This document shows positions 2,118 to 45,520 of a DNA stretch of 52,923 nucleotides, one piece after another. The notes below the pieces were generated by a model. That model was not told the origin of the DNA and ran no database searches. It was given only the letters and a program-made list of their open reading frames with translations. The stretch is taken from the IMG/VR virus record IMGVR_UViG_2877251553_000008; one strand, given 5' to 3'. Positions within the stretch are counted from its first letter, which is position 1. Every line of letters begins with the position of its first letter. The position numbers and the translations under genes were made by a program. Origin of the DNA: a virus. Lineage: Duplodnaviria > Heunggongvirae > Uroviricota > Caudoviricetes.

Positions 2118-2393
2118 GTGGCTTCTGTTTCTATCAGCTGTCCCTCCTGTTCAGCTACTGACGGGGTGGTGCGTAACGGCAAAAGCACTGCCGGACATCA
2201 GCGCTATCTCTGCTCTCACTGCCGTAAAACATGGCAACTGCAGTTCACTTACACCGCTTCTCAACCCGGTACGCACCAGAAAATTATTGATATGGCCATG
2301 AATGGCGTTGGATGCCGGGCAACTGCACGCATTATGGGCGTTAGCCTCAACACGATTTTACGTCACTTAAAAAACTCAGGCCGCAGTCGGTAA
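2118..2393 (+). CDS. insA: IS1 InsA
   Basis: 91-aa [46 protein letters not shown]... Confidence 0.95.
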
Positions 2394-2815
2394 CCTCGCG
2401 CATACAGCCGGGCAGTGACGTCATCGTCTGCGCGGAAATGGACGAACAGTGGGGATACGTCGGGGCTAAATCGCGCCAGCGCTGGCTGTTTTACGCGTAT
2501 GACAGGCTCCGGAAGACGGTTGTTGCGCACGTATTCGGTGAACGCACTATGGCGACGCTGGGGCGTCTTATGAGCTTGCTGTCACCCTTTGAAGTGGTGA
2601 TATGGATGACGGATGGCTGGCCACTGTATGAATCCCGCCTGAAGGGAAAGCTGCACGTAATCAGCAAGCGATATACGCAGCGAATTGAGCGGCATAACCT
2701 GAATCTGAGGCAGCACCTGGCACGGCTGGGACGGAAGTCGCTGTCGTTCTCAAAATCGGTGGAGCTGCATGACAAAGTCATCGGGCATTATCTGAACATA
2801 AAACACTATCAATAA
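2312..2815 (+). CDS. insB: IS1 InsB (made as InsAB' by -1 frameshift at A6C)
   Basis: C-terminal part ...[22 protein letters not shown]...HYLNIKHYQ; start coordinate approximate. Confidence 0.85.
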
Positions 2816-3261
2816 GTTGGAGTCATTACCTGCATGGGGATGTCCTACAAAGGAACACCTTCTTCCACACTTTCTGGAACATGTAGGTAACAACCATCTG
2901 GATATTGGTGTTGGAACTGGGTTTTACCTTACTCACGTACCTGAGAGTAGTCTGATATCTTTAATGGATTTGAACGAAGCTAGTCTGAACGCGGCATCTA
3001 CAAGGGCTGGGGAATCAAAAATTAAACATAAAATTAGCCATGATGTTTTTGAACCTTATCCCGCGGCGTTACATGGTCAATTTGATTCCATTTCCATGTT
3101 TTACCTTCTTCACTGCCTGCCTGGAAATATATCTACAAAAAGCTGTGTAATACGCAATGCGGCGCAGGCGTAAGCGTACAGCCTGAACCGTCTGGTCAGA
3201 ATCTGACGAATTAGACAAAGTGGTGTCCACCAAATAAGTAGTGGGAACCAAAGTGTCAGAT

Positions 3262-3641
3262 ATGCAGAAAAATGTGAATCCCGGCAGGCGAAAAGGCTGC
3301 CCTAATTATCCTCCCGAATTTAAACAGCAGCTCGTTGCTGCCTCCTGTGAACCCGGGATATCCATCTCAAAACTTGCTCTGAAAATGGCATTAACGCCAA
3401 TCTGTTGTTCAAATGGCGACAACAATGGCGCGAGGGAAAGCTGCTATTACCTTCTTCAGAGAGCCCCCAGCTACTTCCTGTGACTCTCGATGCAGCTGCC
3501 GAACAGCCAGAATCGCTCGCAGAGGATCCGGAAACCCTCAGTATCAGCTGTGAGGTAACGTTCCGGCACGGGACGCTCCGCTTCAATGGCAATGTCAGCG
3601 AAAAGCTCCTGACTCTGCTGATACAGGAACTGAAGCGATGA
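3262..3641 (+). pseudogene. IS66-family orfA (TnpA), frameshifted
   Basis: Two overlapping frames (3241..3483 and 3405..3641) together give ...PEFKQQLVAASCEPGISISKLAL / FKWRQQWREGKLLLP...; one base missing near 3380-3385. Confidence 0.7.
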
Positions 3642-3985
3642 TCCCGTTACCTTCCGGGACCAAAATTTGGCTGGTTGCCGGTATCACCGATATGAGAAAT
3701 GGCTTCAACGGCCTGGCGGCAAAGGTGCAGACGACGCTGAAAGACGCTCCGATGTCAGGTCACGTTTTTATCTTCCGTGGGCGTAATGGCAGTCAGGTAA
3801 AGCTCCTCTGGTCTACCGGCGATGGACTGTGTCTGCTGACCAAACGGCTGGAGCGCGGCCGCTTCGCCTGGCCGTCAGCCCGGGATGGCAAAGTGTTCCT
3901 CACACCGGCACAGCTGGCGATGCTCCTTGAAGGTATCGGCTGGCGGCAGCCTAAAAGACTGCTTACGTCCCTGACTATGTTGTAA
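3638..3985 (+). CDS. IS66-family orfB (TnpB)
   Basis: 115-aa ORF MIPLPSGTKIWLVAGITDMRNGFNGLAAKV..., start overlaps the orfA stop (ATGA). Confidence 0.8.
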   Translation: MIPLPSGTKIWLVAGITDMRNGFNGLAAKVQTTLKDAPMSGHVFIFRGRNGSQVKLLWSTGDGLCLLTKRLERGRFAWPSARDGKVFLTPAQLAMLLEGIGWRQPKRLLTSLTML

Positions 3986-4033
3986 GCCTCTTTATCCTGG
4001 TCGACGCTGAATGAGCCTGGTAATATACCCGGT

Positions 4034-5572
4034 ATGAGCAGCTCACTTCCTGACGATATCAATGCACTGAAACGTCTCCTTGCCGAACAGGAGGCGCTGA
4101 ACCGTGCCCTGCTGGAAAAGCTGAACGAGCGTGAACGCGAAATAGACCATCTGCAGGCACAGCTGGATAAGCTGCGCCGGACGAACTTCGGCAGCCGCTC
4201 CGAAAAAGTCTCCCGTCGTATCGCACAGATGGAAGCTGACCTGAAGGCACTTCAGAAAGAAAGTGATACCCTTACCGGTCGGGTTGACGACCCGGCCGTG
4301 CAGCGCCCGCTGCGTCAAACCCGCACCCGCAAACCGTTCCCCGAATCACTCCCCCGCGATGAAAAACGGCTGCTGCCGGCAGCGTCATGCTGCCCGGAAT
4401 GTGGAGGCTCACTGAGCTATCCGGGTGAGGATGCCGCCGAACAGCTGGAGTTGATGCGCAGCGTCTTCCGGGTTATCCGGACTGTACGTGAAAAGCATGC
4501 CTGTACTCAGTGCGATGCCATCGTGCAGGCCCCCGCGCCTTCACGGCCCATCGAGCGGGGTATCGCAGGACCGGGGCTGCTGGCCCGCGTGCTGATCTCA
4601 AAGTATGCAGAGCACACCCCGCTGTACCGCCAGTCTGAAATGTACGGCCGCCAGGGCGTGGAGCTGAGTCGTTCACTGCTGTCGGGCTGGGTGGATGCAT
4701 GCTGCCGGCTACTGTCACCGCTGGAAGAAGCGCTTCAGGACTATGTGCTGACTGACGGTAAGCTCCATGCTGATGACACGCCTGTCCCGGTGCTGTTGCC
4801 AGGCAATAAGAAAACGAAGACCGGGCGGTTATGGACCTACGTTCGTGACGACCGTAACGCCGGGTCAACGCTGGCGCCGGCGGTGTGGTTCGCTTACAGC
4901 CCGGACAGAAAAGGCATCCATCCGCAGACCCATCTTGCGGGGTTCAGTGGTGTACTGCAGGCGGATGCATACGCCGGGTTCAACGAGCTGTACCGGGATG
5001 GCCGGATAACGGAAGCCGCCTGTTGGGCTCACGCCCGCCGTAAAATCCACGATGTGCACGTTCGCACCCCGTCAGCCCTGACGGAGGAAGCGCTGAAACG
5101 GATCGGCGAACTGTACGCCATCGAGGCAGAGATAAGGGGAATGACGGCGGAGCAGCGCCTTGCCGAACGTCAGTTGAAAACGAAACCGCTGCTGAAATCC
5201 CTGGAAAGCTGGCTGCGTGAAAAGATGAAAACCCTGTCGCGACACTCAGAACTGGCGAAAGCGTTCGCATACGCCCTGAACCAGTGGCCGGCGCTGACGT
5301 ACTATGCAGATGATGGCTGGGCTGAGGCGGACAATAACATCGCTGAAAATGCGTTGCGGATGGTCAGTCTGGGCCGCAAAAACTACCTGTTCTTCGGTTC
5401 GGATCATGGAGGAGAGCGGGGAGCGCTGCTGTACAGCCTGATCGGGACGTGCAAACTGAACGGAGTGGAGCCAGAAAGCTACCTCCGCTATGTACTTGAC
5501 GTCATAGCCGACTGGCCGATAAACCGGGTCGGCGAACTGCTCCCCTGGCGCGTAGCACTGCCGACTGAATAA
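4034..5572 (+). CDS. IS66-family transposase (orfC)
   Basis: 512-aa ORF with N-terminal coiled-coil and zinc-finger Cys pairs (CCPECG...CTQC), typical of IS66 TnpC. Confidence 0.85.
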
Positions 5573-23787: not shown

Positions 23788-25292
23788 TCATGGCATGGCC
23801 ATGAGCATTTTCACGTCCGCATCACCGTCTGCTGACGTCTGTGACACGCCACCCCGCACCGCTGCCGGTGAATGATTCGCCATGAAATGTTCAAACAGGG
23901 CGGTTGTGGATGCAGAGACCGGTTCTGCCTTACCTGATCCCGCAGCCAGCACAGCCCGGGCGCTCTCCACGGTCATTCCCGGGCAGGCAGCCAGCTGTTC
24001 AGCCTGCGCCTCAGCCCCTTTTGCCTCATCCAGTGCCATGATCTGATCACGGAGTGATGGTCCGGCATTCGCCTGCGGTGAAGCAGCCAGGATCGGGCGG
24101 GCTTTTTCCACCGTCATCTCCGGCATCGCCGCCAGCGTTGCTGCCAGTTGTTCACGACCGTTCGCTTCTTCACACGCCATAATGCGATCGGCTTCACTCT
24201 GCGCGGATGCCACCGGCTGCTGCGGTGCCGCCGCGGCCAGAATCGCCCGGGCCTGTTCAACGCTCATGCCCTGTTGCCCTGCCAGCATCGTGGCAAGCTG
24301 TTCACGTCCTTTCGCTTCCTGGCATGTCAGGATCCCCATCACTCGCTGGTTCTCCTGCACGGCGGCTTCCGTTGCAGTTAATTGCGGCATAGTGCCTCCT
24401 CTGACATTACTGTTCAGCGCCGTGGCCATCACACTGATGGCATCCGACGCATTGATTAATTCATCCGCCAGCCCGGCCTCAATGCCGGACTGACCTTCAA
24501 AAACGGCGGCCTCTGTTCCCGTGACCGCATCCACAGACAACCCGGTATACATCGCCACTTTTTCGGCAAACATCCGGTGCGCCGCATCAATCCGCTGCTG
24601 CATATCCTGGCGAACCTCTGCCGGCAACGCTTCAAACTGATTGCCATCCACCTTGTGCGCCCCGGCATAAATCAGCGTGATATCCACACCGGCCTGCGCC
24701 AGATGACCGGCATAGCTGACATGGCTCATCATCACGCCAATGGAGCCGATACGGGATGTCTGGGTAACCAGCCGTCGGGAGCAGGCCGACGCCAGCAGCA
24801 TGGCTGCAGAACAGGCCGTGTCATTGCACAGTGCCCAGACCGGCTTCTGCTGACGGAGGCGGTAAATCATGTCAGCGCAGTCAAACGCGCCGGCGGCCTG
24901 CCCACCCGGACTGTCAATGTCCAGCAGTATGCCCCGCACCTGGCTATCTGCCATTGCCTGCTGAAGACAGGCGACAATGCCGTCATAGCCAGTCATTCCG
25001 GAAAATGGCCGCATCCCCCCAGCCGGTGCACCAGCGTGCCGGTCACCGGCAGTACCGCAATACCGTTCACCACCCGGTAAACACGGGCCGGTCGTTTACC
25101 TCCGGCCATGTACTCGTCCGTTTCAGCCAGCATTCCGGGAGCATCAAGCTGTACCTGCTGTTGTGGTACCGAAAGACTTGCTGCGCCCATCTCGCGCCCG
25201 AGCGCGCAAAAGAAAACCCGCGCATAGGCGGGCTCCAGAAGCAGCGGTTCATTGAATGCTGCGGCAATAATGTGTGAAAGATTACGTCTCAC
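23788..25292 (-). pseudogene. C: capsid assembly protease C (S49/ClpP-like; Nu3 scaffold in frame), frameshifted near 25000
   Basis: N-terminal piece ...AAFNEPLLLEPAYARVFFCAL... and 408-aa piece ...GILLDIDSPGGQAAGAFDCADMIYRLR...RLVTQTSRIGSIGVM match lambda C. Confidence 0.85.
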
Positions 25293-30090: not shown

Positions 30091-30283
30091 ACATCCCGGT
30101 TTCTTCCACCATCGCACCGGACAGGCGACTATGAGGGGACAACGCCGCGCTCCGTTAACGCGGTAAACCCCGGTGTGTATCGTTTTTGATTATCCCCGCA
30201 CACTCGCGCAGAGGAGTCTCCCTGTCGGGCTGCGGTCTCTGTTAATGAGGGAATACAGCGACGATACGGCGCATCAACAAAAC

Positions 30284-33570: not shown

Positions 33571-35465
33571 TTATGATGATGCCGGTGCATTTATCTCCAG
33601 CACCAGACTTTCTATCTCAACGCCATACGCTGCATTTTTGGTAATATCCGTCAGCGTCAGTGCATTTAGTCCCACTGCCAGACTGTCTTTTATGGCCTGG
33701 AATGCCGGGCCAGCCACTCCATTCAGTTTCGGAGTAACCGTGGCACTGCCGGCGGTGAACACCAGCTCCAGCGTCTGCCAGTCGTTACTGTAATTCCCGA
33801 ACTCGCCCAACTTTGTGTTTCCGGCTTTCTTGTGATGCATCAGATTCCGTTTGCCGTCTGTGGTCTGGGTGAAGAACGACATCAGGAACGGGTTACCAGT
33901 CCCGGTCATCGCCACGACGTCAGGTAACGCTACATCGGTATACAGATAAATTCCCAGACCGAACTGATTGTTGGTCAGTGCGCCTGACAGTCGAAACTTA
34001 CAGCTCAGTCTGCCACCCCGTGTCAGCAGGGAGACTGCGTCATCCACCGGGCGCGTCAGGGACCAGGCTTTATTGCTCTGCTTGGCGATCTTAAATACAC
34101 CACCCGACAACTGAATTCCGCCGTCCTTAATGGTCCAGCCCTGCGCAGCAGCCTCTCCGGCTGTCGGCAGCAGGGAGATTGTGCGAACGGACGTATCTGC
34201 AGACGGACCCGATGGCGTGTCGCCGCCGGGCGAGGGTTTGATTTCCGGTGCCTTACCACTGATGAAGGCTGAGGTGCGCCCGGCTGCGTTCAGAATAGCG
34301 GTTGCCATACGATCGGGAATAATGCCACGACGCGCCCATGAGCTGAAATTTGTCGGGCGATTTGATGATACCCAGTTTTTGTTCGTTCGGGATGCCGAAC
34401 CGTAATAACCAGACCCGACAATATCAGGATCTTCTGACGGGTTGTTTGTCGGTGTATTAACTCCGCTACCATCGGTCATAAAGGGAACAAAATAAATCTG
34501 CTGGGATTCTTTACCTTTATATGCACCATATACCACTTCATATTGCGTACCGTGTTCTTGTTTCCACGCGTATGTCGTGTCGCCACAAATCCAGGGGACT
34601 GTTGCCGGACTTCCACCGTGACACTGCGCCGCCAGCCCGGCAAGGTCAGCACGGAACTGCTGTACCATTGCAAGAAATGCTGCTGGCTGCTGGGCGTAAC
34701 TGGCATTCGTCATATCGAATTCCCCCTGCATCCAGCATATCGCCAGCAAAACGTTTTTCGGGTTTTTCTGCAATGCTGCCTTCGTGCGGAAAAGCAGATC
34801 CTGATATAACGGCTTACCCACTCCCCAGCGAGCCGAATCCTGACTGGCCCCCGTGGACTCGCTGAATGTCCCCTCCGTGCCCTGGGTGAATGCCGAACCA
34901 CCACGACAGCATGGTACCAGCAGGATCCCGCGTTATTAGGGATATACGGAAGCAGTTTTTTGGCAATATGTAAGCCCTGTCCGACACAGCCGTACTGCCC
35001 TTTGCTCAGGTCAGCCCGGGGATGGTTAATCGTACTCATATCCTGAACATCATGCAGACAATGGTCAGCAGGAATGATGTCGTTAAATACGCATACTTCA
35101 CCACCGGGAGTCACTGTGTTACGACGGGCCAGTTGCTTAATGCGCGGATGGGGCGCATCGTATGAATCCGGAAGCGGAAGCCCTTCACCGTAAGCCATGG
35201 CATTGGACTGCCCGGCCAGGGCAACAACAAATTAATACTCCGGGTTGCTGGTGGTGCTGATAACTGCGCCTTCTCCATCCGACGGCTTCACCACCACAGG
35301 TGTGGTGACATCACCTTCCGCCGCAATGGCCTGCATCAGGGTATAAGGCGTGATGGCCACCGGACTGCCAAATGGCTGCCACCCCTCCTTCAGTTTTTGT
35401 GTCAGTCGCTCCGCAAGGTCTGACGGCGACGCCGCCCTGACCACGTCATAGTGTTTAAATGCCAT
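33571..35465 (-). pseudogene. nanS-p: NanS-p-type sialate O-acetylesterase (DUF1737 plus SGNH esterase), two frameshifts
   Basis: Pieces MAFKHYDVVRAASPSDLAERLTQKLKEGWQPFGSPVAITPYTLMQAIAAEGD.. / ..NAMAYGEGLPLPDSYDAPHPRIKQLARRNT.. / ..MGKPLYQDLLFRTKAALQKNPKNVLLAICWMQGEFD...; typical position between stx/tRNAs and S in Stx phages. Confidence 0.75.
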
Positions 35466-35687: not shown

Positions 35688-35689
35688 GT

Positions 35690-35717
35690 CCATAAGAAAG
35701 CCCCTCCGGAGAGGGGC
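35690..35717 (-). terminator. intrinsic terminator (minus strand), downstream of the tRNA cluster
   Basis: Minus-strand hairpin GCCCCTC-tccg-GAGGGGC followed by TTTCTTAT. Confidence 0.5.
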
Positions 35718-35965
35718 TGGAGAGTGGCGCTATGTGCCATTGCATGGTGCCGGGTGCCTCCCGGTGAGTTCAGTATCAGCACCTGAACCCGCACAGAAAG
35801 GATAAGGGTCGGTGACAAAACACCAGTTGCTGATTGCCCTCCGCACAGGGGATTCACCATGCCAGTTTCTTTTAACAAACTCCCCGCAAACCAGACAACA
35901 GTCAACCGCCTGAATTGTGAGACATTTAAAAAAAGCCCGCAAAAGCGAGCCAGGGAAAATAAGTG

Positions 35966-36042
35966 TGGCGCGTTCTACTGTATTCGAACCAGTGACCGAT
36001 TGCTTAGAAGGCAATTGCTCTGTCCGGCTGAGCTAACAACGC
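35966..36042 (-). tRNA. argN: tRNA-Arg (anticodon UCU)
   Basis: Hand-folded cloverleaf: acceptor GCGTTGT, D-arm GCTC..GAGC, anticodon arm ATTGC-CTTCTAA-GCAAT, T-loop TTCGAAT, encoded CCA; one T-stem mismatch. Confidence 0.6.
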
Positions 36043-36058
36043 AGGATACAGATAATGA

Positions 36059-36132
36059 ACCGCCTTCGGGGACCCGAACTCCGCGCAACCAGCTTCGAAG
36101 GCTGGCGCTCTTTCCTGATGAGCTAATGGCGG
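36059..36132 (-). tRNA. tRNA-Arg-like (anticodon UCG by hand fold), possibly degenerate
   Basis: Acceptor CCGCCAT/AAGGCGG, D-arm GCTC..GAGC, anticodon arm CCAGC-CTTCGAA-GCTGG, T-loop TTCGGGT (G at position 58 is unusual), no encoded CCA. Confidence 0.4.
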
Positions 36133-36139
36133 TATGTGA

Positions 36140-36215
36140 TGGTGGCCCTTGCTGGATTTGAACCAGCGACCTGGCGATTATGAGTCGCTCGCTCTCACCA
36201 CTGAGCTAAAGGGCC
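36140..36215 (-). tRNA. ileZ: tRNA with CAU anticodon (Ile2 ileZ-type or Met)
   Basis: Perfect 7-bp acceptor stem GGCCCTT/AAGGGCC, D-arm, anticodon loop CTCATAA, T-arm GCTGG-TTCAAAT-CCAGC, encoded CCA. Confidence 0.75.
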
Positions 36216-36264: not shown

Positions 36265-37314
36265 TCAAACGATTAAATCCTGAACTTCCCTGACTGTCTG
36301 CTCAAAACGTCCGGTCTCCAGTTCAACGCCAATCGCACGACGCCCGAGCGCCAGTGCCGCTTTTACCGTTGAACCTGAGCCCATAAAAAAATCTGCAACC
36401 TGGTCTCCCGGACGACTGCTCGCGTTGATTATCTGCTGCAACATTTCTGCCGTTTTTTCGCACGGATGTTTCCCTGGATAGTACTGCACCGGTTTATACG
36501 TCCACACATCGGTGTACGGCACCTGCACCGTCACACCGAAATACCTCCGCAAATTTTTATATTCACTCTGCAGCTCCACATACTGCCGGCTCAGCTCACT
36601 GTATGTGCTGACCAGTTGGTAATGGGACTTTTCCAGTTCTCCCCGCTGATGTTTCTCTTCTGCCACCCGGGCAAACAGCGACTGTAATTTCAGATAATCG
36701 CTTTCGTTCGGTAGCTGCCACTGACTGGCACTGAACCAGTGCGACACCATGTTTTTCTTTCCTGTGGCATCTGCAATCTGTTTTGCCGTTATCCCCAGGG
36801 CAGCTCGCGCATCACGAAAGTAAGCAATCAGCGGGGCCATCACATGCTGTTTCAGTACCCTGCCCTTCGCCTCATAGCCATCATCTTTCGGGCGGTACGG
36901 CCCCTGATAATGTTCCGCGAACAGAATGCGCTCTGTGGCGGGGAAATACGCCCGCAGGCTTTCCTTGTTGCACCCGTTCCAGCGTCCGGACGGCTTTGCC
37001 CAGATAATATGGTTCAGCACACTGAAGCGTTCACGCATCATGATTTCGATATCAGATGCCAGGCGATGACCACAGAACAGGTAAAGACTTCCGGCAGGTT
37101 TCAGCACCCGCCAGAACTGCGCCAGACACTGGTCCAGCCACTTCAGGTAATCATCGTCGCCCTTCCACTGGTTATCCCAGCCCTCAGGCTTCACTTTAAA
37201 GTACGGCGGGTCCGTGACTATCAGGTCAACAGAATTTTCGGGTAACGACCGGATAAATTCCAGGCAGTCGGCGTTGATTAACTCACAACTGGATATTTTT
37301 ACAGTATTAGCCAT
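36265..37314 (-). CDS. DNA N6-adenine methyltransferase (DPPY motif)
   Basis: 349-aa ORF with DLIVTDPPYF catalytic motif and C-terminal SAM-binding FFMGSGSTVKAA. Confidence 0.85.
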   Translation of the reverse strand: MANTVKISSCELINADCLEFIRSLPENSVDLIVTDPPYFKVKPEGWDNQWKGDDDYLKWLDQCLAQFWRVLKPAGSLYLFCGHRLASDIEIMMRERFSVLNHIIWAKPSGRWNGCNKESLRAYFPATERILFAEHYQGPYRPKDDGYEAKGRVLKQHVMAPLIAYFRDARAALGITAKQIADATGKKNMVSHWFSASQWQLPNESDYLKLQSLFARVAEEKHQRGELEKSHYQLVSTYSELSRQYVELQSEYKNLRRYFGVTVQVPYTDVWTYKPVQYYPGKHPCEKTAEMLQQIINASSRPGDQVADFFMGSGSTVKAALALGRRAIGVELETGRFEQTVREVQDLIV

Positions 37315-37453: not shown

Positions 37454-37480
37454 ATAAAAAAGCCTTCACTGCGGAAGGCG
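37454..37480 (-). terminator. intrinsic terminator upstream of the methylase gene
   Basis: Minus-strand hairpin GCCTTC-cgcagt-GAAGGC followed by TTTTTTATTTG. Confidence 0.5.
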
Positions 37481-37536
37481 TCTGTAACAACCGAACTGAT
37501 AGTCTGCCAGACCCGCCATAACCAGCTGGGTCAGTA

Positions 37537-37662
37537 TTAACTGGCAGCGTTCGCGTGAAAGGTAAGTATTCTGCGCAATCTCCCGACTGTCGCCGGTTCG
37601 GTGACGCTTAATTCATTAAACACCACTCTGGCGGTTTCTGTCATATCCTGCTGTTTCAGCAT
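37537..37662 (-). CDS. hypothetical small protein (41 aa from internal ATG)
   Basis: MLKQQDMTETARVVFNELSVTEPATVGRLRRILTFHANAAS preceded by a purine-rich RBS; no homologue recalled. Confidence 0.25.
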   Translation of the reverse strand: MLKQQDMTETARVVFNELSVTEPATVGRLRRILTFHANAAS

Positions 37663-38195
37663 GTCTTTTTCCCTTTTCCGGTTAACGTGACACACCAATA
37701 ACTCTTGTCGAAAAAGCCAGCAAGCTGAAAGACAGGTATTCACCGCCACCAGCGCGTTTACTGTACTGACGCGATTTCAGTCATAAAAAACCCGCCAGGC
37801 GGCAGGTTTAAGCTGTATGACGGAGTGACCAATCTTAACAGATTAAGATGGTTTTTGTTATAACACAAATCATTTCCTCGGTATCTTTATATCCCTTATG
37901 TTTCAATCGCCATAGATACCATCAATGAAAGTCGCTTAAAAAACTCTGTAGCAGCTTTGTCTAACGTTGAATAAGTTCTTAGCTCTCCACGCCCGGGACC
38001 AGTCACAACCCACGGACGTCTTTTAGGTGTTCTGGCTCCCTCCGAAATCACAACACCTGATAGACTGACATCAATTGTTATCTCCGTTCTTGTTTCATCC
38101 TCATTAGACTGGCCCCCTGAATCTCCAGACAACCAGTATCACTTAAATAAGTGATAGTCTTAATACTAGTTTTTAGACTAGTCATTGGAGTACAG

Positions 38196-38561
38196 ATGAT
38201 TGATGTCTTAGGGCCGGAGAAACGCAGACGGCGTACCACACAGGAAAAGATCGCAATTGTTCAGCAGAGCTTTGAACCGGGGATGACGGTCTCCCTCGTT
38301 GCCCGGCAACATGGTGTAGCAGCCAGCCAGTTATTTCTCTGGCGTAAGCAATACCAGGAAGGAAGTCTTACTGCTGTGGCCGCCGGAGAACAGGTTGTTC
38401 CTGCCTCTGAACTTGCTGCCGCCATGAAGCAGATTAAAGAACTCCAGCGCCTGCTCGGCAAGAAAACGATGGAAAATGAACTCCTCAAAGAAGCCGTTGA
38501 ATATGGACGGGCAAAAAAGTGGATAGCGCACGCGCCCTTATTGCCCGGGGATGGGGAGTAA
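38196..38561 (+). CDS. insC: IS2 InsC (orfA)
   Basis: [56 protein letters not shown]... Confidence 0.95.
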
Positions 38562-39424
38562 GCTTAGTCAGCCGTTGTCTCCGGGTGTCGCGTGCGCAGT
38601 TGCACGTCATTCTCAGACGAACCGATGACTGGATGGATGGCCGCCGCAGTCGTCACACTGATGATACGGATGTGCTTCTCCGTATACACCATGTTATCGG
38701 AGAGCTGCCCACGTATGGTTATCGTCGGGTATGGGCGCTGCTTCGCAGACAGGCAGAACTTGATGGTATGCCTGCGATCAATGCCAAACGTGTTTACCGG
38801 ATCATGCGCCAGAATGCGCTGTTGCTTGAGCGAAAACCTGCTGTACCACCATCGAAACGGGCACATACAGGCAGAGTGGCCGTGAAAGAAAGCAATCAGC
38901 GATGGTGCTCTGACGGGTTCGAGTTCTGCTGTGATAACGGAGAGAGACTGCGTGTCACGTTCGCGCTGGACTGCTGTGATCGTGAGGCACTGCACTGGGC
39001 GGTGACTACCGGCGGCTTCAACAGTGAAACAGTACAGGACGTCATGCTGGGAGCGGTGGAACGCCGCTTCGGCAACGATCTTCCGTCGTCTCCAGTGGAG
39101 TGGCTGACGGATAATGGTTCATGCTACCGGGCTAATGAAACACGCCAGTTCGCCCGGATGTTGGGACTTGAACCGAAGAACACGGCGGTGCGGAGTCCGG
39201 AGAGTAACGGAATAGCAGAGAGCTTCGTGAAAACGATAAAGCGTGACTACATCAGTATCATGCCCAAACCAGACGGGTTAACGGCAGCAAAGAACCTTGC
39301 AGAGGCGTTCGAGCATTATAACGAATGGCATCCGCATAGTGCGCTGGGTTATCGCTCGCCACGGGAATATCTGCGGCAGCGGGCTTGTAATGGGTTAAGT
39401 GATAACAGATGTCTGGAAATATAG
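38519..39424 (+). CDS. insD: IS2 InsD (orfB transposase)
   Basis: 301-aa [33 protein letters not shown]...[23 protein letters not shown]... Confidence 0.95.
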
Positions 39425-39447
39425 GGGCAAATCCAGTAACTGTTCAT

Positions 39448-39839
39448 TTATCTTGAATCATTTTCGTGATTCATATAGCAATCCATTTCTAAAGATACCT
39501 CGAGCATTGCCAGACACCCTTCAACAAACCCTTCAGCTTTCTGCAATCTAATAACAACTTGATTAAGCGATATCCCCATTTTCGCCCCTAACGCTCGTAA
39601 TGTGATCCCATATACATAATACATTTCCAGTAATTGGTATTGATATGGTTCCTTTTTCTTGAGAACTGCCATAACTGAACTAATGATAAGACCATCATCA
39701 TCGCAACATTGCGGTCGATATTTTACTTTTGAGGGATGAGGCCTTTAAACCCCGCAGCAATTGGCGACCAACTAACATTCTCATGATTATTTGCCGCCCA
39801 TGCTCCCCAGCGTTCGAGAACCATCTGAATATCACGCAT
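39448..39839 (-). pseudogene. Q: late-gene antiterminator Q (Q82/QuuD family), frameshifted at 39733-39735
   Basis: ATG at 39839 with GGAGAAAG RBS encodes [35 protein letters not shown], then frame change, then ..[17 protein letters not shown]...LQKAEGFVEGCLAMLEVSLEMD; matches the recalled DLP12 QuuD layout. Confidence 0.65.
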
Positions 39840-44672: not shown

Positions 44673-45520
44673 GGGCGAACCTCCTTGTCAGAACCATTCA
44701 GCCTGGAATCAACAAGTGCAGCGCCAAAAACAGCATCACCAACACGGTCGTACAGTTTGCTAGCCAGCGGAGATTCAATGGCCTTAAGCATTGGATAAAG
44801 CTGGCTTGTCCAGATTTGATGGATTTCACGCAAATGCAGGTATACGCCTCTGGCGTTTCGTGCGACAGCTGACATATCAACCGCGTCAGCACCAGATAAA
44901 TTCTTCTCCATCTGGTTAAAGGCGTTGATGTATGCCTCTTTGAACCGGGCTGCACGTTTGCCAGTAAAGCCCATAGCAAGGAACGCGAAGCCATCACGGG
45001 TGATTTGATAGCAAGGTAGTTTGCGGCCTGTGCAATCGGTGTAATCACTCACCGAAAAATTGCGGGCAGTGAATGATGCGGAGCATTCAAGCGTGCGGAT
45101 CTTTTTCAGTACATCGTCATGACGCTTGGAGAAGAAGTTGGCAACAGCCAGGGATGAAGTAACAGCCTGACCATCAACGATGGCAATTTCAGGTTGAGTG
45201 AGGGTTGGGATCGTAGCCATGATGGCAGCCTCCGTTGACTGTGGAAAACTTCCACCACCGGAGCTGCGAAACTCACTGGTGGCAGACTGAACAGGGTTCG
45301 CAGTACCGGCGTCAACGGAGACCGGCGAGCCTTTCGGCTCCCCTGCCCAGCCCACCATAATTCTGGCGTGCGTGAGCGCGGACGATAAAAAAGACGCTGG
45401 CGCGTCATATATCGCCGTTGACAATTCCGGGCTGCGACCCCCGGCACCCACTTTATAAGGTGCAGAGACAGTGTAACGTCCCGAAATTGCAGAATCAATA
45501 TTTGGTCTTGAAATGATCAT
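44669..45520 (-). CDS. Rha-family phage regulatory protein (functional start probably ATG at 45220)
   Basis: Rha domain IVDGQAVTSSLAVANFFSKRHDDVLKKIRTLEC... begins ~100 codons into the ORF; internal ATG at 45220 has a GGAGG RBS. Confidence 0.6.
   Translation of the reverse strand: MIISRPNIDSAISGRYTVSAPYKVGAGGRSPELSTAIYDAPASFLSSALTHARIMVGWAGEPKGSPVSVDAGTANPVQSATSEFRSSGGGSFPQSTEAAIMATIPTLTQPEIAIVDGQAVTSSLAVANFFSKRHDDVLKKIRTLECSASFTARNFSVSDYTDCTGRKLPCYQITRDGFAFLAMGFTGKRAARFKEAYINAFNQMEKNLSGADAVDMSAVARNARGVYLHLREIHQIWTSQLYPMLKAIESPLASKLYDRVGDAVFGAALVDSRLNGSDKEVRP

Follow-up and report, generated by a model that had tools for sequence, protein, structure and literature searches.

The stretch of DNA analyzed here (the window, 52,923 nt; IMG/VR record IMGVR_UViG_2877251553_000008) holds a lambdoid prophage whose late region is read from the - strand. 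In the lineage to which it belongs, Q is followed by a 66-bp spacer, a gene for a 205-aa protein, the late promoter pR', a leader of about 49 nt and the tR' hairpin, beyond which lie a 65-aa gene, a methyltransferase gene, tRNAs, and then the lysis and morphogenesis genes. In the window, a complete IS2 stands 12 bp beyond the Q stop codon (39448-39450, - strand), and only the 3' part of the 205-aa gene is found on its far side (Table 1).

Table 1. Features of the Q and late-promoter region, with positions in the window
Feature	Position	Strand	Remarks
Q antiterminator gene, 130 aa in intact relatives	39448..39839	-	Pfam PF06530; C-run contraction as read
12-bp remnant of the 66-bp post-Q spacer	39436..39447	-	by comparison with intact relatives
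IS2, complete, 1331 bp	38105..39435	+	IRL at 38105, IRR at 39435
3' remnant of the accessory gene, 69 codons and stop	37896..38104	-	205-aa phrog_8498 gene; first 136 codons deleted
Predicted late promoter pR', Q933-like family	37811..37870	-	homology to the mapped Sp5 pR'
First late terminator, tR'-like	37785..37809	-	9-bp hairpin, then T6
First gene of the late unit, 65 aa in relatives, phrog_331	37466..37662	-	1-nt G/C-run contraction at about 37581
Second terminator-like hairpin, after the 65-aa gene	37462-37479
DNA methyltransferase gene, next in the late unit	36265..37314	-
Three tRNA genes	35966..36215	-	as upstream of stx or lysis genes in related phages

Several further elements accompany these features. 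Rfam models identify the small RNA STnc100 (130 bits, 35688-35891, - strand) just downstream of the three phage tRNA genes, as well as a C4 antisense RNA (78.8 bits) beside isrK (56.4 bits) at 45275-45463 (- strand) in the early part of the prophage. Near the tail-fibre end, 2438-2815 and 3638-5572 are taken up by a fragment of an IS1 transposase and by a member of the IS66 family (TnpB and transposase), and the host is rich in IS elements.

Q, IS2 and the adjacent deletion

In its intact form, the Q protein of this lineage (Q130) matches PF06530 over profile positions 1-118 of 118 (E = 5e-49, 165.6 bits, cut-off 26) and also matches phrog_79. It is 59% identical to the Q of the Sp5/933W type, 54% to the allele of ZH063 (L002) and 32% to Q21, and its divergence from the Q proteins that adjoin homologous promoter modules (identity 54-59%) is greatest in the C-terminal half. 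As read in the window, the 392 nt of the gene contain no open frame: a C4 run is contracted to C3 at 39733-39735, and Q ends after 38 codons. The frame is intact in a second IMG/VR contig (UViG_2872174743_000006, hereafter L020) that carries the same IS2-Q junction, and the frameshift is probably a sequencing artefact that leaves Q itself intact.

Comparable contractions occur at many positions of the window. Relative to its relatives, single bases are missing at 25014, 27585, 30929, 33292, 34926, within 35836-35847 (35839 and 35847), and at 35927, 37581, 39732 and 41978, the affected runs being G/C tracts 4 to 7 long and, in one case, an A tract, while a single homopolymer gap in the opposite direction is found at 30095. 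As read, these contractions split the genes for the head protease and the large terminase, the esterase gene, the 65-aa gene and Q. If the frameshifts were genuine, the prophage would be dead in any case and IS2 would be one lesion among many. The gene-splitting deletions at 25014, 27585, 33292, 34926, 37581 and 39732 and elsewhere speak for such a history, as does the presence of the IS1 fragment and the IS66-family element in the same window; it is nevertheless quite unlikely. All gene-splitting lesions are homopolymer contractions, always shorter in the window, and none is a nonsense substitution. Moreover, outside IS2 and one recombinant patch, L020 differs from the window by one substitution; every indel between the two is a homopolymer contraction in the window, and every affected run that L020 covers is one base longer there, with Q and the 65-aa gene intact. 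This contraction-only pattern, together with the uncontracted runs of a near-identical contig, argues for sequencing error rather than decay, and the contractions probably reflect systematic under-calling of homopolymers in the source assembly. Apparent pseudogenes in this record, Q included, are hence unsuited for inferring prophage decay. The patch that separates the two contigs is short and highly divergent, covers 34894-35172 in the esterase-like gene, and is probably a recombination tract.

The inserted element is a canonical IS2 of the IS3 family with IS2-specific OrfA and OrfB. Its termini, TAGACTGGCCCCC... at the left end and ...GGGGCAAATCCA at the right, are each single-copy in the window; they are complete and fit the imperfect terminal repeats characteristic of IS2 (IRL TAGACTGGCC..., IRR ...GGCAAATCCA), and the length fits the expected value of about 1331 bp. 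The first reading frame, orfA (38196-38561, + strand), scores 276 bits against NF006928 (cut-off 229), and orfB (38519-39424, + strand) scores 728 bits against NF006918 (cut-off 597), both of which are IS2-specific NCBIfam models; the overlap between the two frames holds the A6G slippery frameshift site CAAAAAAG. The element is oriented against phage late transcription, the phage genes around it lying on the - strand. A new promoter arising at the joint of phage DNA and IRR (TGAACA-17-TATATT, 39446-39418) was considered and rejected, being a chance-level match that reads into IS2.

A preliminary description of this DNA had reported that the 1331-bp IS2 begins 12 bp past the Q stop and lacks a 5-bp target duplication, and both the coordinates and the flanking pentamers (CTCAT and GTAAC) agree with it. 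When the target duplication is missing and DNA beside one end has gone as well, this is a classical sign of an IS-adjacent deletion or of recombination between two IS copies. The deletion that had been suspected from the missing duplication is found by comparison with IS2-free relatives, obtained by megablast against 5426 complete E. coli genomes. In many of these genomes, the two IS2 flanks are joined by extra DNA, and in E. coli SCU-105 (L001) 463 additional bp lie precisely between them. In SCU-105, Q (130 aa) is separated by a 66-bp spacer from a 205-aa hypothetical gene, and 233 bp of intergenic DNA follow before the 65-aa gene, the DNA methyltransferase gene, three tRNAs, an esterase-like gene and the holin gene. 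The segment absent from the window (L001 4907-5369) takes in 54 bp of spacer as well as codons 1-136 of the 205-aa gene. Of the 5426 genomes, 67 carry 80% or more of a 1241-bp query spanning Q130, the 205-aa gene and the promoter module. Because the adjacent 463-bp deletion explains the absence of a target duplication, this absence reflects the history of the IS2 copy rather than the identity of the element, which is an ordinary IS2 and, as a case of IS-adjacent deletion, nothing unusual.

The junction between IRR and the Q side is reproduced exactly in two independent IMG/VR contigs, IMGVR_UViG_2872174743_000006 (L020/L096) and IMGVR_UViG_2826321507_000001 (L019/L095), of which L020 covers IS2 in full. 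There, the IRL-side junction falls at the window equivalent of 37919, 185 bp beyond that of the window itself, and the promoter is kept; comparison of these junctions indicates nested deletions anchored on IS2. A common IRR-side junction combined with differing IRL-side junctions fits a single insertion 12 bp after the Q stop, followed by deletions from the IRL end, and repeated second insertions of IS2 with recombination would be a less economical alternative. In the inferred order of events, IS2 would have entered 12 bp past the Q stop, probably at the target GTAAC, and a later loss beside IRL would have removed the second copy of the target along with 54 bp of spacer and the first 136 codons of the 205-aa gene, leaving the late promoter, leader and terminator untouched. 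An ancestral insertion with a GTAAC duplication was not found in IMG/VR, nor does the left IS2 junction of the window have a match in that collection. In IS2 transposition, IRR serves as the donor end and IRL as the recipient end (PMC3299598). The variable junction here is on the IRL side, and it may be speculated that the one-sided deletions are due to this asymmetry.

It is extremely improbable that the arrangement is an artefact of assembling an IS present in multiple copies, whether by misplacement of IS2 or by collapse of the 463 bp beside it. The assembly does appear error-prone at homopolymers, and the right (IS2-Q) junction of the window is found in none of the 5426 complete E. coli genomes, the GTDB species representatives or the metagenome contigs; however, the IS2-Q junction recurs in the two independent contigs described above, and both ends of IS2 are complete and joined cleanly to phage DNA.

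The late promoter module beyond IS2

The reference for locating the late promoter is Sakai prophage Sp5, where dRNA-seq has placed the pR' start and Term-seq the 3' end of tR' (PMC7547250). The published coordinates were moved to NC_002695.2 with an offset of 142 bp, under which the 3' end falls on the last T of the terminator run. The Sp5 start is the A of GATAAGAG, 22 nt past the Q stop and 7 nt past TATCAT, and it aligns with A37833 of the window, which is accordingly the predicted start. In E. coli ZH063, which lacks the 205-aa gene, the sequence immediately past the Q stop is homologous to what immediately follows the stop codon of the 205-aa gene in the window, and both of these segments are homologous to the post-Q sequence of Min27 and Sakai Sp5.

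A scan of IMG/VR with Q130 yielded 80 loci, 77 of them usable. The core [AT]TAAGA[GT]TG[AG]T lies no more than 60 nt from the Q stop in 44 of the 77 and more than 700 nt away in 13; the remaining 20 lack it and have other promoter types. Twelve distinct modules align without gaps and share a -35 hexamer (TTTACG or TTGTGT), an A5 tract, a -10 hexamer, an invariant G and the core, the -10 hexamer reading TAnnnT in 11 of the 12 and nAnnnT in all of them; the -35, spacer and -10 of the window are in register with those of its 11 relatives. A weight matrix was built from ten modules, with the window and L001 left out. It gives 47.4 bits at 37870-37811 (- strand), whereas the next best score on both strands of the 52.9 kb is -3.1, against a background over both strands with a mean of -58.7 and an SD of 12.9. 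This single high score means that the window contains exactly one promoter of the Q933-like pR' family.

The module comprises a -35 TTGTGT (37868-37863), 17 bp, a -10 TAATCT (37845-37840) and then the conserved core GTTAAGATTGGT. It is identical in sequence to the promoter of intact relatives, lies 237 bp past IS2 on its left side, and stands immediately ahead of the terminator hairpin. In intact relatives without IS2, the core is 741 nt past the Q stop. The two hexamers are weak, with 6 of 12 consensus positions, and a generic promoter scan is unhelpful for hexamers of this kind; generic sigma-70 and terminator scans called neither the post-Q spacer nor the downstream module nor the hairpin. 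A TAAGAT overlaps the predicted start; the family as a whole has no conserved TAnnnT between +2 and +15, and no clear sigma-dependent pause element or Q-binding element (QBE) is readable from the pR' sequence; to our knowledge, no QBE has been defined for Q933-like proteins. In E. coli 99-3165, the same core precedes tRNAs, holin and lysozyme, and the regions downstream of other PF06530 Q genes (DLP12 QuuD, 2G7b, PhiR40_1 and SfIV) have no homology to either candidate site, spacer or module. The site is predicted to be a sigma-70 promoter downstream of Q that reads into the late genes, and its activity, like the action of Q130 upon it, is likely on grounds of homology, although the identity of only 54-59% between Q130 and the Q proteins beside homologous modules speaks against a firm assignment of specificity.

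The preliminary description had also pointed to a candidate tR'-like terminator at 37786-37812, on the far side of IS2, and the hairpin with its T6 run does behave as the first terminator of the late unit. A leader of about 49 nt is predicted, and a 54-nt leader segment folds at -18 kcal/mol (z = -3.0); no Rfam family covers the leader. The hairpin is kept in relatives with either type of Q. In one of them, prophage L007, the same late region of 65-aa gene, methyltransferase and tRNAs stands behind a 273-aa lambda-like Q, and the slot occupied by pR' in the window holds the lambda pR' core GGTAAATTTG followed by the pause sequence AACGATGGG, as direct comparison with lambda reveals. From the hairpin onward, L007 is near-identical to the window, with scattered differences only, so the Q-specific unit ends at the hairpin, which is the first late terminator for both Q types.

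These results bear on whether IS2 struck the late promoter itself. It had been supposed that the element sits where pR' and qut should be; in this lineage, however, the 205-aa gene separates Q from pR', the promoter of the family survives beyond IS2, and the best matrix score in the 3' end of Q and the spacer of L001 is -18.5 bits. A remaining version of that idea holds that Q130 had its cognate pR'/qut in the 66-bp spacer, with the 205-aa gene between this promoter and the hairpin, and lost it in the deletion linked to IS2, so that the late genes are locked and the downstream module is a relic of a previous Q. In keeping with this idea, the promoter of most relatives begins only a few bases past the Q stop, the core being no more than 60 nt away in the 44 loci. 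The divergent C-terminal half of Q130, the spacer and the 205-aa gene travel together in a single AT-rich block, which could have arrived bringing its own promoter, and the spacer contains TTTACA and TAATCT, which resemble the family hexamers. Yet the spacer falls far short of the 47.4 bits reached downstream, no -10 stands 16-18 bp after its TTTACA, and the generic scan detects no promoter on its strand; it contains no recognisable pause element, and there is no terminator between it and the 205-aa gene. The downstream module, for its part, is complete and conserved and occupies the slot of the lambda-type pR' in a prophage with another Q, and in a second Q group, too, Q is separated by a gene from a bona fide Sp5-type pR'. 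A lost spacer promoter is therefore judged unlikely; were it true, the prophage would be locked.

The premise that pR' lies immediately after Q holds as the usual arrangement, given the 44 of 77 loci, but not for this lineage, where the distance is 741 nt, nor for the second lineage, in which the promoter is likewise displaced. Adjacency of Q and pR' is usual and mechanistically not required. Q binds DNA at the promoter and is loaded there onto paused RNA polymerase (bioRxiv 10.1101/651190), and the distance between the Q gene and pR' is not critical for that reason. As Q is diffusible, 1.3 kb of extra DNA between its gene and its target should not uncouple the two, a deduction from established mechanism, and control of the late genes should persist if Q is intact and works in trans at the promoter. 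The proposal that Q is uncoupled from every late gene is thus probably incorrect, the promoter and terminator having survived past IS2. The favoured reading, held with considerable confidence, is that IS2 and the 463-bp deletion destroyed an accessory gene between Q and pR', that the late promoter and terminator are intact, and that Q is probably still coupled to them. If an IS right after Q is read as a destroyed late promoter, such a prophage will be misclassified as locked.

Accessory genes between Q and pR'

The protein encoded between Q and pR' belongs to phrog_8498, a family of unknown function. It has weak WYL matches in PADLOC (E about 1e-4), no match in Pfam or NCBIfam, and distant phage homologues only. 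A single block with a G+C content of 33-40%, flanked by DNA of about 50%, extends from the 3' half of Q through the spacer and the 205-aa gene. The octamer AAATGATT occurs twice on the - strand, at 39456-39463 in the 3' end of Q130 and at 37868-37875 just before the -35 of pR'; situated at both borders of the AT-rich cargo block, it may represent a recombination joint. In E. coli 266917_2 (L012, NZ_CP026723), an IS10-like element (ISVsa5, 2197-4152) independently splits the same 205-aa gene. This gene looks like dispensable cargo, and the functional loss from the IS2 event is that of the accessory gene.

An equivalent arrangement with a different gene is found in IMG/VR locus L066, where a complete Sp5-type pR' module (about 3670-3770) is separated from a Q933-like Q by an unrelated 197-aa gene with CxxC motifs (3016-3609); L083, L086 and L091 are organized likewise. 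It is conceivable, if doubtful, that the interval between Q and pR' is a recurrent slot for unrelated accessory genes in Q933-like lambdoid phages and is repeatedly subject to inactivation by IS elements, as exemplified by IS2 with its nested deletions in the window and by the IS10-like element in E. coli 266917_2. Genes in such a position might not depend on the late switch for their expression and could, for example, be active in the lysogen. Since some Q933-like phages have a cargo gene between Q and pR', the position of the promoter should be assigned by homology and not by adjacency to Q. Only two points about the locus are mildly unusual, namely the displaced pR' and the nested deletions anchored on IS2.

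Comparison with known late-control systems

Phage 21 provides a late regulatory cassette annotated in detail, with Q21, its QBE and its SDPE (OL657228; bioRxiv 10.1101/651190). Q130 is a distant relative of Q21, with 32% identity and E = 1.4e-8 to PDB entries 6P18 and 6JNX. The promoter sequences of phage 21 and of the window are not alignable, and unlike phage 21 the window has no direct repeat of the Q21 binding subsites ATTGAGCA/AATGAGCA and no evident pause element at +2. Common to both is a terminator less than about 50 nt past the start, and hence a short leader.

The lambda pR'/qut region occupies the same functional slot as the window module, as illustrated by L007, in which the lambda pR' core stands directly ahead of a hairpin of the window type. 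Nevertheless, the Q family of the window is unrelated to that of lambda, as are its promoter and pause sequences.

The Shiga toxin phages Sp5, 933W and Min27, whose pR'-tR' region is the source of the small RNA StxS (PMC7547250), offer a further comparison. The -35 of Sp5 is contained in the 3' end of Q, and transcription starts only 22 nt past the stop, in contrast to the window lineage, where an accessory gene intervenes and the separation amounts to about 0.74 kb when intact and 1.6 kb with IS2. The hexamers of the window are weaker than those of Sp5, the StxS region with its second terminator at +258 is absent, and the 65-aa gene and the methyltransferase gene lie downstream of the terminator instead. 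In Sp5 (L006 871-895) and Min27 (L004 2982-3006), the mapped pR' transcript contains, between about +26 and +50, a hairpin with T7 that is homologous to the terminator of the window and far ahead of the published tR' at +258. Despite the differences in spacing and downstream content, the Q of the window is in the same Pfam family as its counterpart in these phages, and the two systems have in common the -35, the A5 tract in the spacer, the -10, the core around the mapped start, and a hairpin with a T run some 25-50 nt downstream.
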